From NCBI GenBank assembly GCA_038874595.1, contig JAVZCB010000005.1, forward strand, positions 17,594 to 81,593: 64,000 nucleotides of DNA, in the 5' to 3' direction. Shown here in pieces: positions 8,646 through 63,622 of this stretch. The position numbers were made by a program, and so were the translations under genes. The notes below the pieces were generated by a model. It was not told the DNA's origin. It saw only the letters and a program-made list of their open reading frames with translations, and did not search any database. This stretch comes from Candidatus Micrarchaeia archaeon. GTDB lineage: Archaea > Micrarchaeota > Micrarchaeia > CAILAH01. The stretch's first letter is position 1, and the number at the start of each line of letters is the position of its first letter.

Positions 8646-9011
8646 TTATCTCCTTCTCTTAACAATCTTCATCTTTGAAGGAGTAAGAAGTATCTTCTCG
8701 TTGTCAATCCTTGCAATATCACCACGGATTTCCTTTGCATACTCCTTAAGCTTATCGATAACTGCTGTGAGCACCTTTTCATTCTTGAGCATTGGCGTGA
8801 TGTTCAAGAGAATGACATTCCCGTTGTTCAGCTCGGTCTTTATTTCTGCAAGCACAGCGGTATTCTCAAGCGCAACCGGCTTAACGTATGCGACCGCTTC
8901 TTCCTCCTCGGTAGCAAGGTTCTCAAGGTCTTCAGAATCAAGATATTCCTGTAGATTCATGTCCTTTCCGCCCAGTCCGAGTGCGTCAGTAAACTTCTGC
9001 AGTATACCCAT
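8646..9011 (-). CDS. SepF-like (DUF552) putative cell division protein
   Basis: About 120 aa with acidic linker and C-terminal alpha/beta domain; track start at 9026 is TTG, the first ATG is at 9011. Confidence 0.45.
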   Translation of the reverse strand: MGILQKFTDALGLGGKDMNLQEYLDSEDLENLATEEEEAVAYVKPVALENTAVLAEIKTELNNGNVILLNITPMLKNEKVLTAVIDKLKEYAKEIRGDIARIDNEKILLTPSKMKIVKRRR

Positions 9012-9026
9012 TGTACCACCTGTCAA

Positions 9027-9240
9027 CTATTTCTACAATAAATATTATAAATATGAATTAAACCTCACTTCATAAAAATAAATGAACCTGATTGCATGCA
9101 ATACGCGTGCTTGTTTTTTATGATGGGAGATTCTATATAAGCCTAGTTGTAGTTCTACTATTTTATGAATGAGAAAGAAATAGTGGAATTAAGTATTTAA
9201 AATATCGTGCGCTTAATCTGCTGCTTGTTTTGAGTGTGGT
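9027..9240. other. Candidate replication origin (oriC) region upstream of orc1/cdc6
   Basis: AT-rich 214-bp divergent intergenic region; perfect palindrome ATTGCATGCAAT; one AGTGGAA mini-ORB-like core near 9181. Confidence 0.35.
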
Positions 9241-10425
9241 ATGATGCTGACATTTGAGGAGCTGATGGAAAGGAGCGGTGTGTTTAAGGATATGAATATG
9301 CTTTCACCGCATTACATCCCAGATGTCCTGCCTCACAGGGAAGAAGAAATTGAAACCATAATGAAAACCGTTGCGCCTGCTCTTAAGAATACAAAACCAA
9401 AAAACATGTTCCTCTATGGCAAGACAGGTACCGGCAAAACTTGCTCAACCCGCCTAGTGATGGAAAAGTTCAATGCAATGAATAAGAATGCCATCATGAG
9501 ATATATGAACTGCAGGATTTATGATTCAAGGTACAAAATCATATTCAAGATAGTTAATGATGTATGCAAAGAAGATGCAAAAATGGGGTACCCTCTCTCA
9601 AAGCTTTACGAATCAATGCTGGAATGGGTTGAGCAGAACAACACGCACACCATAATTGTGCTTGATGAGATTGATATGGTTGATGATGTCGACGACCTGG
9701 TGTACACCATGACAAGGATAAATGATGAGCTTGAGCGCGGTAGTGTCTCAATAATAGGCATTTCAAACCGCTTACATTTCAAAGAAAAACTCGACCCGCG
9801 CAGCAAGAGCGCATTGTACGAGAAGGAAATCGTGTTCAGGCCTTACAATGCAACACAGCTGTACGAGATACTCAAGCAGCGGGCGGAAGGTGCCTTCATA
9901 AAGGAAGGTGTTGAAGACGCCGCTATAAGGCTCGCAGCCGCAGTTGCTGCACGAGAAACTGGCGATGCGAGATATGCTGTAAAGCTCCTGCACAAGGCCG
10001 GTGTAATAGCAAATGAAAATGGGGATTTGAAAGTTACTGAAAAGCACGTGGAAAATGCAAGAAAGAGCGTCGATGAGGATCTGGTTGTTGAGGCAATCAC
10101 CACCCTGCCACAGCACGAGCAGATTGCGCTGTATGGGATATCTTTATTGCAATTAAAAGGCAGCGCATATAAGAGGCTCGGTGAGGACGGCCAGGACATA
10201 TTCATGTCCGGAGAGGTATATGAAAGTTATGTAAAAGCGTGCAAAAGCCTTTCCGTAACCCCAAGAAGTGCGCGATGGTTCTCTGAATACTTAAATGATT
10301 TGGATATGCTTGGGCTGATTGCACTGACATCTTCAGGAAAGGGGACGCGTGGGCAAACGCGGTTTATTAAGCTGGCGTATGACCCTGCAAGGATAAAGGC
10401 CATTGTTGAGAAAATATTCAGCTGA
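9241..10425 (+). CDS. orc1: Orc1/Cdc6 replication initiator
   Basis: Walker A GKTGTGKT, AAA+ architecture, C-terminal winged helix; ATG start confirmed. Confidence 0.9.
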   Translation: MMLTFEELMERSGVFKDMNMLSPHYIPDVLPHREEEIETIMKTVAPALKNTKPKNMFLYGKTGTGKTCSTRLVMEKFNAMNKNAIMRYMNCRIYDSRYKIIFKIVNDVCKEDAKMGYPLSKLYESMLEWVEQNNTHTIIVLDEIDMVDDVDDLVYTMTRINDELERGSVSIIGISNRLHFKEKLDPRSKSALYEKEIVFRPYNATQLYEILKQRAEGAFIKEGVEDAAIRLAAAVAARETGDARYAVKLLHKAGVIANENGDLKVTEKHVENARKSVDEDLVVEAITTLPQHEQIALYGISLLQLKGSAYKRLGEDGQDIFMSGEVYESYVKACKSLSVTPRSARWFSEYLNDLDMLGLIALTSSGKGTRGQTRFIKLAYDPARIKAIVEKIFS

Positions 10426-11357: not shown

Positions 11358-12773
11358 TTACCTGACCTCACTTGGATATCCTTTATTTCTGCTTCTTGAT
11401 AATGCTGCATAGTCGCTCTGGCCTGCACGAAAGACACTGCCGTATGAGTCAAGCAGCTGCTCCTCAATCGATTGCGCACGCTTTATTGCACGCTCAACGT
11501 GTTCCTTTGAAATAAGTGATGCACCTTCAAATATTGCAATATCTCCCGCCATCTTTATGATGCCGCTAAGGTCACGAAGCCTTAATGTAAGACCGTCCTT
11601 TCCATCAATCTGCCTCGCGCGCAATTTTGATTCCTGTATTATGCGCATGCACGCATCATAAGATGCATGTGGTATCCTCCCATCTTTTGCAATCTCCTGC
11701 GCTATGAACTGTACCATTTTCTCGCGGTTTTTCTCGTTATCCGGCATAACCGTATTAAGCAGCACTTCATAACCAGAACCTATAATACGTGAGCGTAGGG
11801 GTGGAAGTATTGCGTGCACATCATTGATGTTAACTGCACCTACAAGAATGAAATCGCACGGCACGTTATCAACGCGAACAACCGCACCTGTGCTCGTTGA
11901 ATTCCTGCCTACTATCGGGAACTTTTTCTCCTGCATTGCTGTTAAAAGATACCTTTGTAACTCACCAAGCGTTGAAAGCTCATCAATGAACAGGACACCT
12001 TCGTGTGCTTCGTGTATTGCCCCGGGCACAACACGCTCGTGCGGCGGTATCCCAATATCCTTGTGGCCGCCGTACGGGTCGTGCCTTACATCACCAAGCA
12101 ATTCCGATTCTGACGCTCCTGTCGCCTGCACAAAAGTATTCCTGTCAAGATGGACCAGGATTTTTCTCTGCTGCTCACCACCTGCGCGCGTCCTGTTTTT
12201 GTATACCTTAACCTTTGTGCCCGCACGCTCATAGGTAAGCTCTTCCTCCTTGCCCTCAGGGGTTATGCGCTTCATCAGGACCTTATCATCGCGCGAGATG
12301 CGCGGCGCACTTGAGAACATATCTTCAATATTACGGTTTCTCCTATACTTTTCGGCACCGCAGTATAAGCATATGTTTGATTCCGGATCGCTTATTGTCC
12401 CGCATTTCCTGCATCTAAAGCCCAGCCTTTCAGAAACGTAGTATGGGGCATCGCGCGGGTCAATCAGCTTTGCCTTAAGTATTTCCTTTTTCTCACGTTC
12501 AATATCCTCTGCGGTTTTTATCTCAAGAATCGGCCTGTCAGGGTTCTCAAAATTGCTTAAAACAGCAATCTGCTGCGTAGGCTTTGGAAGTGCGGATGAA
12601 ATTGTGTTTGCAATAAAGCTCTTGCCAGTACCTGGTGGGCCAACCAAAAGCAGGTGCCTCCTCTGCTTCGCAACAATATGCGCTATTTCAAGAACGTGCT
12701 CCTGCCCAATCACCCTTTCAAGAGGGCTTTCAGGAATCTTTATTTCAGAAGTACTCTCAAAAGATAGAGGCAT
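11358..12773 (-). CDS. LonB-like AAA+ ATPase with zinc-ribbon insert and no protease domain
   Basis: VIGQE...GPPGTGKS, Walker B VLFIDEL, LRSRI...GYEV as in archaeal LonB; CxxC...CxxC insert; ends after the AAA+ module. Confidence 0.6.
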   Translation of the reverse strand: MPLSFESTSEIKIPESPLERVIGQEHVLEIAHIVAKQRRHLLLVGPPGTGKSFIANTISSALPKPTQQIAVLSNFENPDRPILEIKTAEDIEREKKEILKAKLIDPRDAPYYVSERLGFRCRKCGTISDPESNICLYCGAEKYRRNRNIEDMFSSAPRISRDDKVLMKRITPEGKEEELTYERAGTKVKVYKNRTRAGGEQQRKILVHLDRNTFVQATGASESELLGDVRHDPYGGHKDIGIPPHERVVPGAIHEAHEGVLFIDELSTLGELQRYLLTAMQEKKFPIVGRNSTSTGAVVRVDNVPCDFILVGAVNINDVHAILPPLRSRIIGSGYEVLLNTVMPDNEKNREKMVQFIAQEIAKDGRIPHASYDACMRIIQESKLRARQIDGKDGLTLRLRDLSGIIKMAGDIAIFEGASLISKEHVERAIKRAQSIEEQLLDSYGSVFRAGQSDYAALSRSRNKGYPSEVR

Positions 12774-13549: not shown

Positions 13550-14884
13550 ATGAGTAGTTTTCTCACAAGGTGTAAAGAGGCGCGTGATGAAATCAGCAAA
13601 ATGGAGGATGTGCTAATTGTTCATCATTACGATGCTGATGGGCTTAGCAGCGGCGCGCTCGTTGCGGCTGCACTTGAAAAGATGGGAAAAGCATACTCCC
13701 GCCTCTGCTTTAGAAAACTTACTCAGAAGGAGCTTGGGGAGATTGCACAAAGAAAGGAAAAGGATGTGATACTTGCTGATTTTGGAGGTAGCGTCCAGGA
13801 AGAGCTGGCCAAGATGGAAAAGAGGCGCGTTGTTATTATTGACCATCACATTTGTGAAGAAGGCCCAATACTTCAGGTTAATCCCAGGCTTTTTGGGATT
13901 GATGGATCTCGTGAAATGTCCGGCTCATCCACAGCGTATTTCACGTTTGGGTTTCCTGAGCTGTCACCAATAGGGATTGTTGGTGCGGTGGGGGATGTCC
14001 AGGCACCGCTGTATGGGTGGAACAGGAAAATGCTAGAAGAAGGAATTAAAGGCGGGTTCGTAAATGCTTACAATGACCTTTGCATGTTTGGGCGAATGAG
14101 CAGGCCGCTCGTGCCATTTCTACTTTACTCAACAGACCCGTTCGTACCTGGGCTGACCGGTAATGAGGGGAATGTTCTTGATTTCTATAATAAGCTGGAT
14201 ATACCCGTAAAAGATGCTGACGGTAAATGGAGGTCTTACATGGACCTAACTGAAGAGGAAAAGCTGCGCCTGCGCTCTGCACTCGTATCATACCTCTATG
14301 AGAAAGGATATAAGAGAACGGCGGCATCATTAATCAGGGAAGTGTACGAGCTGCTTACATATCCCAAAGGCACAGAGATGCGGGATGCGAGCGAATTCTC
14401 AACACTATTGAATGCCTGCGGCAGGCACAACGAGCCCGATGTTGGCGTGAACGTGCTACTTAAGGTGCAGGGCGCATATGAGCGTGCAGAAGCGCTGCTC
14501 GAGCACCACCGGAAGATGCTGCGTGAGGGTGTTGAATATGCTCAGAAAGTAATAGTTGATATTGGGCCGTTCTATTTTGTTGATGCGAGGGGAGTTATTG
14601 ATGATGGGATTATAGGTGTTGTTGCAGGGATGCTGTACAGCACCATATCTCCTGACAAGCCCGTGCTTGCGATTGCGCTTGATGCGGACGGGAAAATAAA
14701 GCTGAGCTCGCGCGGCACGCGCACGCTCGTTGAAAACGGCCTGAACCTAGGAAAAGCACTCGAGAAGGCATGCAGTGGAATAGGGGTTGGTGGTGGGCAC
14801 GATATTGCAGCTGGCGCAACCATTGAAGCAGACAAGCTGAATATATTTCTTGAGCGGTTTGGGAAAGAAATGCTTGTACAGTAG
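13550..14884 (+). CDS. DHH/DHHA1 phosphoesterase (RecJ-like/GAN-type nuclease)
   Basis: DHH motifs HHYDADG and IDHH; DHHA1 GGGH near the C-terminus. Confidence 0.7.
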   Translation: MSSFLTRCKEARDEISKMEDVLIVHHYDADGLSSGALVAAALEKMGKAYSRLCFRKLTQKELGEIAQRKEKDVILADFGGSVQEELAKMEKRRVVIIDHHICEEGPILQVNPRLFGIDGSREMSGSSTAYFTFGFPELSPIGIVGAVGDVQAPLYGWNRKMLEEGIKGGFVNAYNDLCMFGRMSRPLVPFLLYSTDPFVPGLTGNEGNVLDFYNKLDIPVKDADGKWRSYMDLTEEEKLRLRSALVSYLYEKGYKRTAASLIREVYELLTYPKGTEMRDASEFSTLLNACGRHNEPDVGVNVLLKVQGAYERAEALLEHHRKMLREGVEYAQKVIVDIGPFYFVDARGVIDDGIIGVVAGMLYSTISPDKPVLAIALDADGKIKLSSRGTRTLVENGLNLGKALEKACSGIGVGGGHDIAAGATIEADKLNIFLERFGKEMLVQ

Positions 14885-19716: not shown

Positions 19717-19900
19717 TTAATCTTCGCATAGCACAAAAAAACTGCTGTGATAAGCGTGTGCTTGAGTGGTTGGCCTCATAAATCCTGAATAGATTAATCT
19801 TCACATAGCACAAAAAAACTGCTGTGATAAGCGTGTGCTTGAGTGGTTGGCCTCATAAATCCTGAATAGATTAATCTTCGCATAACACAAAAAAGCTGCA
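19717..19900. repeat. Tandem direct repeat, 77-bp unit, about 2.4 copies
   Basis: Units start at 19717, 19794 and 19871; copies 1 and 2 differ at one position; also a 10-bp tandem ACAACTAATG x2 at 19671-19690. Confidence 0.85.
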
Positions 19901-25305: not shown

Positions 25306-25974
25306 TCAATAGCAAAAATGCCTCTTGAAGAGGTAATCTGCAATATTGTTGTTGCCGCACATGCGTGCTATATCAATTGCAGTATGCTGCCATTCATCCT
25401 CAAACAATATCCACGCGCCATTATTAACCAGCATCCTGGCTATGCGCATGCTACCGCTCGCTGATGCAAACATCAACGCCGTGGAGCCAGAGAAGTTGCG
25501 TGCATTGACATCCGCTCCTGCATCAATAAGCATCTTTGCAATTGTTACTTCGCTAAGTGATGCCGCCCACATCAGTGCGTTGTCGCCAAGCACTGTCGGC
25601 AGGTCAACCTGTGCGCCTGCATTGAGCAGATGGGATACAATCCTAATCCTGTTGCACATTGTAGCCAATACTATTACAGGTGTGCCCTCATCATCAACCA
25701 CGTTTGGGTTTGCACCGCTTTCAAGCAGTGCTTTGACCGCACCGCTGTCACCTTTCAGGGTAGCATAAATAAGTGCATAGCCGAGCTGTACGTCATGTCC
25801 CTGCTTGTAAATCCAATTTAAGTCAGGGATGAGCTTATTTATCTTGTTTGTCAAGGGCAGCATAGCATTTTTTCGAAAACTGTTTATCCTATGTGCCTTC
25901 TCTGCGGGGGACTGCGAAGGCTCAACAATAAAATCGCATGCCTGCACTGTTGCTGTTTTCATCTGGCTGATCAT
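25306..25974 (-). CDS. Ankyrin-repeat protein
   Basis: Multiple 33-residue ankyrin repeats with G-TPL..A...G motifs. Confidence 0.7.
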   Translation of the reverse strand: MISQMKTATVQACDFIVEPSQSPAEKAHRINSFRKNAMLPLTNKINKLIPDLNWIYKQGHDVQLGYALIYATLKGDSGAVKALLESGANPNVVDDEGTPVIVLATMCNRIRIVSHLLNAGAQVDLPTVLGDNALMWAASLSEVTIAKMLIDAGADVNARNFSGSTALMFASASGSMRIARMLVNNGAWILFEDEWQHTAIDIARMCGNNNIADYLFKRHFCY

Positions 25975-26334
25975 TTTGCCCCACTCAGTATATATTATTG
26001 TATTTCATACTTAAAAACATTTTGATAGCAGGAAAAGCTAAAACAGGTTAAAAATCATAAAAGCGCTTTTTTTGAAAATTATAGTGAATAGAAGCTTATA
26101 AAAGCGAATTGCGCTTTTATAATTGCTTTTTTGCTCAAACAGATTAACTAAGGTGTTTTTTGCCTCTAAAAAAACAAAGAAAAAGCGTTACCGCCTGAAA
26201 AGTTAAGATTAAATATGGGCATAAAATTTCCGCCTGAATTTTAAGCTTAAATAGAAATTGCTATAATGTATTGGTGCGGGGGGTTAAGTAAAATCGCATG
26301 CCTATGAGTTTTACTGCCTAAGCGGGGTGTTTTA

Positions 26335-29190
26335 ATGGGAGATTATCCAAAGGAGATAATTAAGCGTGATGGACGGAAAGTCCCTTTTGAAATTAACAGG
26401 ATGAAAAACTCAATAAAGAAGGCAATGATTGCTGAGAATTCTTACAAGGCCGATATGTTAGAGAAGGTTGTGGCAGATGCGCTCAAGAGCATAAACATGG
26501 TGTTTAAGGATAAAACCCCTACAGTTGAGGAGGTCCAGGATATAATTGAAGTCGCGCTCATGAAGAACAACCTGTTTAGGGTTGCCAAGTCATACATCAT
26601 ATATAGAAACGAGAAGACAAAGCTTCGGGAGGAAAAAAAGAAGATACTAAATAAGACTGAGCTTGATGAGGTTGACAAGAGGTTCAGTATAAATGCACTG
26701 CGCCTGCTTGCTGCGCGGTATCTCATAAAAGATGACAAGGATATGCCTGTTGAAACACCAAAGCAGATGTTCCAGCGTGTTGCGCTTGCAATGTCCCTAC
26801 CTGAGATATTTTATGATACTCGTGTATATTCCAAGGAGCCGAAGTTTATCATAAGAAAGGAGGATGCGGATATTGAGCTTGCTGAGTATGCACAGCGGCT
26901 TGATGACTATGATAATAAGTATAGCCTGAACGGCTACAAGATTAACAAATGGAATTTTAGCAGGATGATTGCACTGTACAGGGAGCTTGCGCAGGAGGGC
27001 AGGATGAAGATACGCTTTACCGAAGTGCTAAAAATGCTCGAAAGGGGAGAGTTTACGCGTGCAGCAATGATTGCACAGCGCGCGTTTGACCTTATGACAA
27101 GCAAGGATTTCATGCCAAACACACCAACATTGGTTAATGCTGGAAGGAAACTTGGAATGCTCTCCGCATGCTTTACGCTTGATGTTGAGGATGACTTGGA
27201 ATCAATTATGAAGCTGGCGCACGACTGCGCAATAATACACAAGAGCGGTGGCGGTACCGGAATGAATTTCTCAAAGCTACGGCCCGAGGGAGACATTGTA
27301 GCCTCAACAACCGGAGTGGCAAGCGGCCCAATCTCCTTTATGAGGATGATAGATGCCGTATCCGAGGTAATCAAGCAGGGCGGGGTTAGGAGAGCTGCAA
27401 ATATGGGTATCCTTGAGATATGGCACCCGGATATAGAAAAGTTTGTGACTGCAAAGGGGAAGGAGGGTGTTTTGGAAAATTTCAATATATCTGTTGGGAT
27501 AACCGCGGACTTTTGGCCGTACCTTGAGAGAGGGGAGGATTACCCGCTCAGGCATCCACGAACAAACGCTATCATAAGAAAGACTGACCCGAGAAAACTG
27601 TTCAACCTGATTGCATATAACGCCTGGGCGTCAGCTGACCCGGGTGTTCTCTTCTTTGACAATATCAACAAGAGAAACGTTATGAAACGGCTGCGCGGGG
27701 ATGTGCGCGTAACAAACCCGTGCGGTGAGGAGCCACTTTACCCGTATGAATCCTGCAACCTGGCGAGCATAAATGTAGGCAACTTTGTGGTGAAGAACGA
27801 TTCTGGTGAGTATGAGTTTGACTGGGAAGCGTATCACGAAACTATAAAATTTGTTGCACGTGTTCTTGACAATATAATAAGCATAAACAAGTATCCTATT
27901 GAGGATATAGATATCACCACAAAGAAATCAAGAAGGATTGGTGTTGGGCTGATGGGTGTTGCTGATGCGTTGTTCAAGCTGAAGATAAAATACAACAGCA
28001 AGGAAGGGTTCATCTTCTTAAAGAAGCTTGCAGAGCACCTCACATATTACACATACGATTCATCAAGCGAAACTGCCGTGGAAAGAGGTACTTTCCCGAT
28101 ATATGATGAGACCGATTATCCGAAAGGTGAGCTGCCTATCGAGGGGTACTATCATAAGGAGGAGTGGACGTGCGACTGGGATGCCCTTGTTGAAAAAATA
28201 AAGAGAAACGGCTTGAGAAACGCCATGGTCACAACTGCACCCCCAACGGGGTCGATTGGGATGATTGCAGATGCGAGCACTGGGATTGAGCCGGTGTTCT
28301 CACTTGCGTTCGAGAAGAGGGTTTCTGTGGGGTCTTTCTATTACACAAATGAGGTCTTTGAGGAAGAAATCAAGAAGCGCGGACTCTATTCAAGCGAGCT
28401 TGTCAAGAGTATCGTTGATAATTACGGGAGCATCCAGGGACTGCCGGATTCAGTGATGCCTAAAGATATAAAAGATGTATTTGTGACTGCGATGGATATT
28501 CACTGGGCAGACCACATAATGGCACAGGCTGTAATGCAAATGTGGATTACTGATAGCATCAGCAAGACAATTAACATGCCATCCAGCATTACTGTTGAGG
28601 ATGTTGAGCAGGCATATCTCATATCGCACGAGCTTGGCTGCAAAGGGATAACTATTTACAGAGATGAGTCCAAGAGCAGGCAGGTGCTTAACCTGAACGG
28701 TGAGAAGAAGGGGCAAAGAGTAGGAGCAAGAATAAGCGATTACACGTTGGGTGTTATAAGGTCGATAATGATCGAGAGACCGTATCTCTCTGATTACCTA
28801 AAACTCACTGGGGGCACCGCATCAAGCGCTGAAGCGGTTATTACTGCTCCGCTTAAAAGCGTTGTTGAGGGTGGGATTGTCCAAATGAGTGTTGCTGGCT
28901 CTGCTGAAAGCTCGGTAGTTACCTCTGTTGAGCCAATAGTAAATCCTGTTTTAAACAATGGGGAGTTAGGGGAAATAAACCCTGTCATAAAAAGCAATGA
29001 GGAAGTAATTGTTGGGAAAGAGCATACTAAAGTACGACTTCTAGCTGAATCTGCCGGGAATGTTGTACAAAACCATAAAGTGTCACAGAGTGTTCTCATA
29101 TGCCCGTCGTGCGATAGCACAAACGTTGCAAAAGAGTCTGGATGCATGTCTTGCAAAGATTGCGGGTGGAGCGCTTGCACCATTTCGTAA
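26335..29190 (+). CDS. nrdJ: Class II (adenosylcobalamin-dependent) ribonucleotide reductase with N-terminal ATP-cone
   Basis: ATP-cone IKRDGRKVPFE, conserved RNR catalytic core, C-terminal Cys-rich zinc-ribbon; no intein seen. Confidence 0.85.
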   Translation: MGDYPKEIIKRDGRKVPFEINRMKNSIKKAMIAENSYKADMLEKVVADALKSINMVFKDKTPTVEEVQDIIEVALMKNNLFRVAKSYIIYRNEKTKLREEKKKILNKTELDEVDKRFSINALRLLAARYLIKDDKDMPVETPKQMFQRVALAMSLPEIFYDTRVYSKEPKFIIRKEDADIELAEYAQRLDDYDNKYSLNGYKINKWNFSRMIALYRELAQEGRMKIRFTEVLKMLERGEFTRAAMIAQRAFDLMTSKDFMPNTPTLVNAGRKLGMLSACFTLDVEDDLESIMKLAHDCAIIHKSGGGTGMNFSKLRPEGDIVASTTGVASGPISFMRMIDAVSEVIKQGGVRRAANMGILEIWHPDIEKFVTAKGKEGVLENFNISVGITADFWPYLERGEDYPLRHPRTNAIIRKTDPRKLFNLIAYNAWASADPGVLFFDNINKRNVMKRLRGDVRVTNPCGEEPLYPYESCNLASINVGNFVVKNDSGEYEFDWEAYHETIKFVARVLDNIISINKYPIEDIDITTKKSRRIGVGLMGVADALFKLKIKYNSKEGFIFLKKLAEHLTYYTYDSSSETAVERGTFPIYDETDYPKGELPIEGYYHKEEWTCDWDALVEKIKRNGLRNAMVTTAPPTGSIGMIADASTGIEPVFSLAFEKRVSVGSFYYTNEVFEEEIKKRGLYSSELVKSIVDNYGSIQGLPDSVMPKDIKDVFVTAMDIHWADHIMAQAVMQMWITDSISKTINMPSSITVEDVEQAYLISHELGCKGITIYRDESKSRQVLNLNGEKKGQRVGARISDYTLGVIRSIMIERPYLSDYLKLTGGTASSAEAVITAPLKSVVEGGIVQMSVAGSAESSVVTSVEPIVNPVLNNGELGEINPVIKSNEEVIVGKEHTKVRLLAESAGNVVQNHKVSQSVLICPSCDSTNVAKESGCMSCKDCGWSACTIS

Positions 29191-38580: not shown

Positions 38581-38921
38581 TGAGCGGTTGGTGGGCAGCT
38601 TACGGTGCCTTTCTTTGGTGCAGCTTTCTTTAGAAAGCTGGGAACTTGATAAGCTCCTGTACACCAAAAGAAAGGTACTGAGGAAGGTCCACCCACGCAG
38701 AGCTCTGACTGCATTAATATTGCAGATGGGGGAACAGAAACGGTACCCTCCCCGCCTTATGGGATGAGGATAACGACTTCGGTGGGATAAGGGATGAAAC
38801 GGCCTCCTGTGCAGGGCTGTGAGCGTGCAAGCCCTTTCGGGCGCTTAGACAAATGCTGCCAAGATGAGCATATCCATAAGGAAGTGCATCTTACAGAAGG
38901 TGGCCTACAACCAGCCGCTCA
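38581..38921 (+). ncRNA. rnpB: RNase P RNA (candidate)
   Basis: 10-bp terminal helix UGAGCGGUUG (38581-38590) with CAGCCGCUCA (38912-38921); CR-I-like GAGGAAGGUCCACCC (38680-38694); CR-V-like ACAGAAGGUGGCCUA (38893-38907); these form a P4-like pairing with a bulged U. Confidence 0.7.
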
Positions 38922-63052: not shown

Positions 63053-63055
63053 TTA

Positions 63056-63161
63056 GGCGCAGCAGGTTGCAGCGGGTTAAAAATCAGAACTTACAAGCCT
63101 TAAAACAGCGAATGAGATGCCTGCCAGGCGCAGCGGGTTGCAGCGGGTTAAAAATCAGAAC
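63056..63161. repeat. Two 35-bp direct repeats downstream of tfe, each with an oligo-T tract on the minus strand
   Basis: Copies at 63056-63090 and 63127-63161 differ at one position; second copy overlaps the tfe stop; internal tandem GCAGCGGGTT x2. Confidence 0.7.
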
Positions 63162-63622
63162 GTAGAGGCGCGCGCACGCGCATCGCGCTCATTTGCCTCA
63201 ATTGTTGAGCCGCACTTATAACACCTGAAGGAGCAATCAGTCGCGGTATCAAAGTCATACCCTTCCTTGCAGCCACTGCAATAAAATGCGGGGGTATGAG
63301 TCTCAACAACATCCGCCTTAATTACGGTATCACAGTTGTAGTTATTGAGGAATTCTTTTAGCTTGGCCTCTTTAAGCGTCCAGATGTATGTATATTTGCC
63401 AGTATCATCGTCGAAGCTCCTCTTATACTCTATGAGATTGTGGTTAAACAGCTTGTTAAGTACTGCCCTTATCCTTGAAGGCTTGACCTTTATCTGCTTG
63501 GAGATGTATTCTGCAGAAACAGGCTTGTTCAAATATGGGAGTACAACTATGAATAGCTCTCCAAAATGAAGTATTGCCTTATTTTTTATATCAACGTTAC
63601 GGGAGATATATTTTGAAATCAT
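63155..63622 (-). CDS. tfe: Transcription factor E (TFIIE-alpha homolog)
   Basis: N-terminal winged helix and C-terminal zinc ribbon FYCSGC...FRCYKCG. Confidence 0.7.
   Translation of the reverse strand: MISKYISRNVDIKNKAILHFGELFIVVLPYLNKPVSAEYISKQIKVKPSRIRAVLNKLFNHNLIEYKRSFDDDTGKYTYIWTLKEAKLKEFLNNYNCDTVIKADVVETHTPAFYCSGCKEGYDFDTATDCSFRCYKCGSTIEANERDARARASTF

Follow-up and report, generated by a model that had tools for sequence, protein, structure and literature searches.

The short AT-rich gap in front of orc1/cdc6 at this locus raises the question of whether it holds a chromosomal replication origin, as the initial annotation had proposed, or signals of a different kind. Micrarchaeota are DPANN archaea with genomes of ~1 Mb, and a specialist would expect Orc1 boxes to be found near orc1. 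In the searchable literature we found no description of a replication origin or an Orc1 recognition sequence for Micrarchaeota, nor did we find an origin mapped by experiment in any DPANN archaeon; the rotation of complete DPANN genomes to orc1 is a convention only. We analyzed a stretch of 64 kb of DNA (referred to below as the window) and compared it with 93 related loci, which together with the window amount to 544 kb and were searched on both strands. The features of the locus discussed below are collected in Table 1.

Table 1. Features of the sepF-orc1 locus, in coordinates of the window
Feature	Position	Strand	Description
sepF (cell-division protein SepF)	8646-9011	-	Pfam PF04472, 3.4e-12; divergent from orc1
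sepF-orc1 intergenic spacer	9012-9240	.	229 bp; GC 0.31 versus ~0.44 for the window
Weak third box-like site	9022-9031	+	GTCAACTATT, 8/10; in sepF leader or transcription-start region
Putative sepF TATA/BRE region	9037-9054	-	ATATTTATAATATTTATT on the minus strand; -27 to -44 from the ATG
Imperfect palindrome, 72 nt	9061-9132	.	Arms 73% complementary; center ATTGCATGCAAT; lineage-specific
Left Orc1-box-like element	9153-9162	+	TTCTACTATT, 9/10 to TTCCACTATT
Spacer between boxes	9163-9178	.	16 bp, TTATGAATGAGAAAGA; loosely conserved TTAYGnnTGAAAA (alignment A4)
Right Orc1-box-like element	9179-9188	-	AATAGTGGAA on plus = TTCCACTATT on minus, 10/10
Putative orc1 core promoter	9189-9202	+	TTAAG (BRE-like) and TATTTAAAA (TATA-like)
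orc1 leader, conserved	9208-9240	+	TGCGCTTAAT..TGCTTGTTTT and degenerate Shine-Dalgarno (alignments A3, A4)
orc1/cdc6	9241-10425	+	Pfam Cdc6_lid, Cdc6_C (winged helix) and AAA matches

The spacer adjoins a predicted Orc1-1-type initiator gene

The Orc1 protein of the window is a 100% match to a protein in 'Candidatus Micrarchaeia' MAGs, and its close homologues are Micrarchaeota without exception. Among proteins of solved structure it is closest to two initiators that bind ORBs, S. solfataricus Orc1-1 (2qby_A, 7e-72) and A. pernix ORC1 (2v1u_A, 2e-67), each of which was crystallized on ORB DNA, and we assign the gene product, as judged by its sequence, to the Orc1-1 type of initiator. Scores against Orc1-3 (1e-29) and the Orc2 type (4e-17) were far weaker, and the recognition-helix arginine and the basic wing are kept. 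In relatives, the start of orc1 aligns to the second ATG of the window gene, at 9244 (alignments A3/A4). A second orc1 paralogue, which, if it had a clearer ORB cluster, would have refuted the proposal according to the initial annotation, was absent from the 64-kb window when this was searched by tblastn with Orc1 as the query.

The divergent layout of sepF and orc1 is kept across Micrarchaeota loci. We place the sepF start at ATG 9011, which is preceded by a GGTGG Shine-Dalgarno sequence (the complement of 9016-9020) and agrees with the gene calls in the sister strains L093 and L094, where the same 121-aa sepF was annotated; a start at TTG 9026 was rejected on these grounds. The earlier description of an AT-rich non-coding gap upstream of a genuine orc1/cdc6 therefore stands, but its bounds (9027-9240, 214 bp) have to be extended to 9012-9240. 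Only two other non-coding stretches of at least 200 bp in the window are likewise unexplained, and 9025-9084, within the spacer, is the second least stable 60-bp duplex segment of the window. A search of the spacer against Rfam gave no match even at E<=1, and neither an RNA family nor an RNA structure was found.

Genes for replication and repair functions lie in the vicinity of orc1, namely those for a RecJ/GAN-like DHH protein, RNase HII, Hjc and ribonucleotide reductase. We note that a 471-aa AAA+ protein with Mg-chelatase, MCM and LonB-lid-like matches is encoded at 11358-12773 (minus strand) and that the RecJ/GAN-like protein, of DHH-CID-DHHA1 architecture, is encoded at 13550-14884 (plus strand); both genes are syntenic near orc1 in the close relatives that cover the region (L007-L010, L093 and L094). 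Together with RNase HII and Hjc, which are encoded further along the window, the AAA+ and DHH genes make up a replication and repair neighborhood.

Several features elsewhere in the window were noted. An archaeal RNase P RNA (RF00373, 91 bits; 38583-38919, plus strand) fills an otherwise unexplained 359-bp gap. A 117-nt tRNA match (Rfam RF00005; 62896-63012, minus strand) that was missed by ARAGORN probably contains an intron, and beside it, at 63055-63169, are two 44-nt direct repeats (AGGCGCAGCrGGTTGCAGCGGGTTAAAAATCAGAAC...) with a spacing of 71 nt. Further, a 77-bp tandem repeat (19717-19899; 2.4 copies, 96-99% identity) occupies the convergent gap between a 153-aa ORF and trm5. The copy number of this repeat varies between strains, with 3.4 copies in L093, and the L094 contig ends exactly there; no RNA-fold signal, Rfam match or Orc1-box was detected in it.

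The palindrome and the AT-rich center are neutral filler

The perfect 12-bp palindrome ATTGCATGCAAT, one of the features on which the proposal of an origin was based, is indeed present at 9091-9102. However, palindromes of this kind are expected by chance: perfect palindromes of at least 12 bp number 21 in the window versus 16.3 in shuffles. A sister-strain contig in NCBI reaches only ~6.4 kb and ~0.9 kb beyond the two ends of the window. L093 and L094 have an identical Orc1 protein and differ from the window by 0.19% at the DNA level over 19.6 kb; their spacer departs from that of the window at only three positions (9087, 9098 and 9104), and the palindrome is destroyed, reading ATTGCATCCAAT. 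In L001, L007, L095 and L096, the whole of 9061-9132 is unalignable. Relatives at 79-92% Orc1 identity carry shorter, unrelated sequence in place of the 72-nt segment, and in L001 (88% identity) the AT-rich center is replaced by sequence of ~53% GC. Because the palindrome occurs at chance frequency, is broken by SNPs in sister strains and gives way to unrelated sequence in relatives, we read it as a chance or neutral feature, and we rejected it as a functional element given its frequency, its lack of conservation and its position in an SNP hotspot between strains. We conclude that the 12-bp palindrome and the AT-rich center are neutral, fast-evolving filler.

The 72-nt imperfect palindrome around it folds, as DNA, only modestly better than shuffles (z = -2.7). 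The possibility that this segment is a MITE or another repeat was considered and rejected, as no further copy was found in the window or in the 90-odd loci. We also note that the three spacer SNPs fall within 18 bp at the center of the quasi-palindrome, where ~0.03 would be expected at the background divergence of 0.19%; this clustering could reflect relaxed constraint or hairpin-templated mutation.

AGTGGAA belongs to a 10-bp box with an inverted partner

The AGTGGAA element, at 9182-9188, had been likened to the ORB core. As a bare 7-mer it does not stand out, with 11 occurrences in the window versus 7.6 expected (13 of 100 shuffles reach 11), and both AGTGGAA and the extended form AATAGTGGAAY with up to two mismatches occur at chance frequency window-wide. 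It sits within the 10-mer AATAGTGGAA, read below on the other strand as TTCCACTATT and referred to as the box. The statement that only one ORB-like element could be found proved to be wrong: a partner, TTCTACTATT, which matches the box at nine of ten positions, lies upstream of it in inverted orientation, and the two are 26 bp apart from start to start. The third box-like site listed in Table 1 is probably due to chance; sites matching at eight or more positions occur at 0.26 per 229 bp window-wide, and this one decays in L095 and L096. Likewise, a run of five such sites between 9022 and 9615 is insignificant, as 101 of 300 shuffles reach a maximum of at least five per 600 bp. The remaining sites in the 64-kb window that match at nine or more positions number four and are all within coding regions, and the box is found at no other promoter among the ~61 genes of the window. 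Because the box sites elsewhere in the window are all in coding sequence, we conclude that it does not act as a general motif for a regulon.

The box is exclusive to orc1 across several lineages

In the 544 kb searched, the exact box occurs 13 times, against a chance expectation of ~1, and all 13 copies are located 11-83 bp upstream of an orc1 start. The carriers are the clade of the window (L093/L094, L007, L001, L095 and L096; Orc1 identity 79-100%), L026, L045/L054 and L057, which represent at least four deeply diverged Micrarchaeota lineages, with pairwise Orc1 identities of 46-59%. The box follows orc1 and not sepF, since L026 carries it without a sepF gene upstream and in L045 sepF is ~640 bp away. 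A further cluster of box-like sites, in L021 (5321-5403), was judged to be due to chance, as it lies within a 746-aa coding region.

Within the clade of the window, both arms of the inverted pair can be followed, with a spacing of 25-26 bp from start to start (alignment A4). The two arms match the box at ten and ten positions in L001 and L095, at nine and ten in the window and L096, and at eight and ten in L007. The footprint of conservation comprises the arms and the BRE/TATA element; conservation is loose in the sequence that separates the arms, and the center upstream of them cannot be aligned. In L008 (80%) and L009 (75%), the left arm is deleted and the right arm degraded while the promoter is kept, and among the loci compared many other Micrarchaeota are without the box. 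Its loss in L008 and L009 and its absence from many relatives imply that the box pair is dispensable or replaceable. The homologous spacers range from 58 to 330 bp overall and measure 58-120 bp in many relatives.

These results show that the box is a deeply conserved cis-element, exclusive to orc1 in the DNA examined. What had been noted as AGTGGAA thus holds up as part of a conserved, ORB-like, orc1-linked box, and not as a 7-mer in its own right. It follows that we regard it as very improbable that the spacer is an ordinary AT-rich divergent promoter gap in which the palindrome and AGTGGAA both arose by chance. The chance frequency of the palindrome and the bare 7-mer, the lack of an RNA family or structure and the free evolution of the center would all be as expected of such a gap, but it would account neither for a 10-mer that is exclusive to orc1 in several lineages nor for the arm-specific conservation of the inverted pair. 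Because of this exclusive multi-lineage association with orc1 and the conservation of the arms, we exclude chance as the origin of the box but not as that of the palindrome.

Several loci have other elements upstream of orc1. In L032 (2335-2396), the sepF-orc1 spacer contains at least five alternating copies of CAAATGC/GCATTTG, and in L025 (2277-2375) it contains at least six AAACGGCGG-like copies at a spacing of ~11 bp (Orc1 identity ~48% in each case). These clusters could be lineage-specific sites for an initiator or regulator; TTTGCAT/ATGCAAA was rejected as a motif common to Micrarchaeota spacers, as it was unenriched in a k-mer test. In L026, a very AT-rich intergenic region of ~500 bp (1785-2280) upstream of orc1 contains A-tracts and one exact box, with a 16-nt inverted repeat, TCAAAACAGTGTGGGA / TCCCGCTCTGTTTTGA, on either side of the box, and looks more origin-like than the spacer of the window. 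Further, in L056-L090, which belong to other archaeal lineages (Orc1 identity 36-41%), which are more distant, k-mers such as GTTCCATAGGA and TTTCGAGTGGA show strong enrichment in front of orc1 and probably serve there as ORB-like boxes.

The inverted boxes overlap the putative orc1 core promoter

The right box directly abuts TTAAG-TATTTAAAA, which shows little or no variation among the window, L001, L007, L095, L096, L008 and L009 and which we infer to be the BRE/TATA of orc1. Comparable A/T boxes are located at -25 to -45 from other genes of the window, and the ribonucleotide reductase gene is preceded by two copies of a TTAAGnTTAAATA-type element like that of orc1. A second conserved block of the spacer, 9012-9058, corresponds to the Shine-Dalgarno sequence, leader and TATA-like region of sepF. 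The putative sepF TATA/BRE within it is conserved in the same loci as that of orc1, and its position matches that of the A/T boxes upstream of other window genes, which suggests a promoter element. We conclude that the spacer is a compact bidirectional promoter region, the sole conserved non-promoter element of which is the inverted box pair.

Outside the clade of the window, in L045, L054 and L057, the box is found between the TATA-like element and the start codon, where L097 has a 7/10 relic. An initiator-type box that overlaps the orc1 core promoter, as predicted from sequence, is thus conserved across relatives, and in every lineage with the box a protein bound to it would be expected to collide with the orc1 pre-initiation complex.

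We propose Orc1 itself as this protein because the TTCCA(C/G)T half of the ORB/mini-ORB core recurs in the box and the adjacent gene is of the Orc1-1 type; adjacency and partial motif resemblance are thus what point to the binder. In our proposal, Orc1 monomers would bind both 10-bp boxes in the orc1 promoter, and box-bound Orc1 would occlude TFB, TBP and RNA polymerase there, leading to autorepression. We estimate the probability that Orc1 binds the boxes and acts at its own promoter at roughly 60%, and autorepression would be the most economical mechanism. Box-bound Orc1 could also nucleate a very compact origin, for which the adjacent promoter DNA, easily melted, would be used.

Alternatively, the inverted boxes might be the operator of some other DNA-binding protein, such as a cell-cycle transcription factor that controls orc1, with Orc1 not binding at all. 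Operators of archaeal repressors are typically inverted repeats across a core promoter, as here; the dyad and the G-string that mark canonical ORBs are missing from the box; and its loss is compatible with the retention of orc1 and the orc1 promoter. However, in the DNA examined the box is seen at orc1 alone, and autoregulation is a more economical explanation than a dedicated factor that would have only one target; arms centered 25-26 bp apart are widely spaced for a simple dimeric operator; and TTCCAC matches the half of ORBs that is contacted by the winged helix. On balance, we consider an operator for another factor unlikely and favor binding by Orc1.

The ribonucleotide reductase gene mentioned above (class II-like; 26335-29190) is itself preceded by a divergent gap of 360 bp and 32% GC (25975-26334). 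This gap contains two direct copies of CCGCCTGAAnnnTTAAGnTTAAATA (26190-26253) and an inverted repeat, AATCATAAAAGCGC/GCGCTTTTATAATT (26053-26124), and an exact 15-nt repeat, TAAAATCGCATGCCT, occurs at 25929 and 26289. The arrangement looks like tandem promoters with an upstream regulator site; the Orc1-box is absent from 25975-26334.

The spacer lacks the features of a canonical ORB-type origin

The spacer could still be the chromosomal origin (oriC), with the boxes serving as ORBs, AT-rich 9022-9090 as the unwinding element and MCM loaded there. The predicted initiator belongs to a class whose origin is usually adjacent: Orc1-1-class origins usually adjoin the orc1-1 gene, and Orc1-1 sites are broadly conserved (PMC3607249; PMC4640148). 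Further points in favor of oriC are the conserved ORB-like box pair, the rarity of unexplained stretches of such length in the window together with the low duplex stability of this one, the replication and repair genes in the neighborhood, the different short-repeat clusters in the same spacer in L032 and L025 and the ~500-bp AT-rich region upstream of orc1 in L026.

These points have to be set against the architecture of the spacer. The search for ORB and mini-ORB motifs that the initial annotation had suggested revealed no cluster: the canonical mini-ORB, TCCAGTGGAAA, with up to two mismatches has no occurrence in 9012-9240 and fewer window-wide than in shuffles, the G-string 3' of the core is absent, with flanks that are A/T-rich or variable at both boxes, and what was found are two half-ORB boxes. 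Two good boxes (10/10 and 9/10) fall short of the working criterion of more than four mini-ORBs per intergenic region in Thermococcales (PMC4640148), and the run of five weaker sites does not make up for this, given its insignificance in shuffles. In the minimal haloarchaeal oriC1, the unwinding element lies between inverted ORBs (PMC3936714), whereas here the boxes are 16 bp apart without an unwinding element between them, and the low-stability segment 9025-9084 is not enclosed by the pair and extends over the putative sepF promoter.

The comparison with relatives gives a mixed picture: the box is conserved in four deep lineages, and other observations count against oriC. The AT-rich center is conserved neither in sequence nor in length nor in composition (being GC-richer in L001 and variable between strains), the homologous spacers are often as short as 58-120 bp, and L008 and L009 no longer have the box pair. 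Nor is there a long intergenic region within 10 kb on either side of orc1 in L091, which comes from a 1.18-Mb record, or in L092, for which a contig of 167 kb was read and whose Orc1 is also found on a 1.17-Mb contig. GC skew, another check suggested at the outset, tracks gene strand in the window (r = 0.82) and, with the strand effect removed, has no breakpoint at 9 kb, a result that carries almost no power in a 64-kb fragment.

Overall, we conclude that the spacer is not a canonical ORB-type oriC by the features tested (ORB cluster, dyad core, G-string and flanked unwinding element). Of the points that bear on an origin upstream of orc1/cdc6, the adjacency to an Orc1-1-type gene, the conserved ORB-like box and the low-stability DNA were borne out; the ORB cluster, the flanked unwinding element and a conserved AT-rich center were not. 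Origin function of the spacer is possible, and we give oriC somewhat less than an even chance. Much the same tentative weight attaches to the boxes being the core of an unusually compact origin, which overlaps with their being an Orc1-binding operator and does not exclude it. A more specific version, which we think rather doubtful, is an ultra-compact, promoter-embedded Micrarchaeota origin of ~200 bp, in which recognition would depend entirely on the inverted half-ORB pair at the orc1 core promoter and the melting DNA would be provided by the divergent sepF and orc1 promoters. If this were true, replication initiation, orc1 autoregulation and sepF expression would be physically coupled.

Discussion

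The results correct the cue with which the analysis began, in that the inverted box pair is the actual signal of the spacer and the palindrome is irrelevant to it. The conserved 10-bp candidate Orc1 box provides a concrete, testable motif for an unstudied phylum and a handle for asking whether reduced genomes keep the classic origin of ORBs and unwinding element or a minimal one embedded in a promoter.

Compared with the ORBs of oriC1-type origins (Sulfolobus, Pyrococcus, Aeropyrum and haloarchaeal), the boxes described here are likewise short, conserved and arranged as an inverted pair immediately upstream of an Orc1-1-type gene. In the Pyrococcus mini-ORB, TTCCAGTGGAACT, the TTCC and GAA cores are essential, and the dyad core is TTCC-N3-GGAA(A) (PMC1904270). 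The box has TTCCA(C/G)T / AGTGGAACT, or AGTGGAA(C)T, in common with this element, and the L001 box matches it at 9 of 13 positions. However, TTCCACTATT is a half-site, with ATT where GGAA/GAA would be expected. Unlike oriC1-type ORBs, the boxes are present in two copies and not in a cluster, their arms stand 16 bp apart and do not flank an AT-rich unwinding element, and they are embedded in the putative core promoter and missing from many relatives. The locus also resembles a compact origin of ~200 bp with two inverted boxes, in that AT-rich DNA lies beside the cognate cdc6/orc1 gene; it differs from such an origin in that the AT-rich DNA is outside the pair, coincides with the putative sepF promoter and is unconserved in composition in L001.

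The bacterial counterpart of the mechanism that we favor is provided by the DnaA boxes in the dnaA promoter, which serve autoregulation of the initiator; to our knowledge, Orc1 autoregulation via promoter boxes has been demonstrated in no archaeon. In Sulfolobus, Orc1/Cdc6 proteins have binding sites away from origins and transcriptional roles (PMC3607249). The likeness of the present locus to both the DnaA-box/dnaA arrangement and the non-origin binding of Orc1 in Sulfolobus is that the candidate boxes overlap the core promoter of the initiator's own gene, at a position relative to the TATA element that has been kept or re-created in several lineages. It differs from DnaA-box autoregulation in that Orc1 is here a putative binder, proposed from the company and the partial motif of the boxes.
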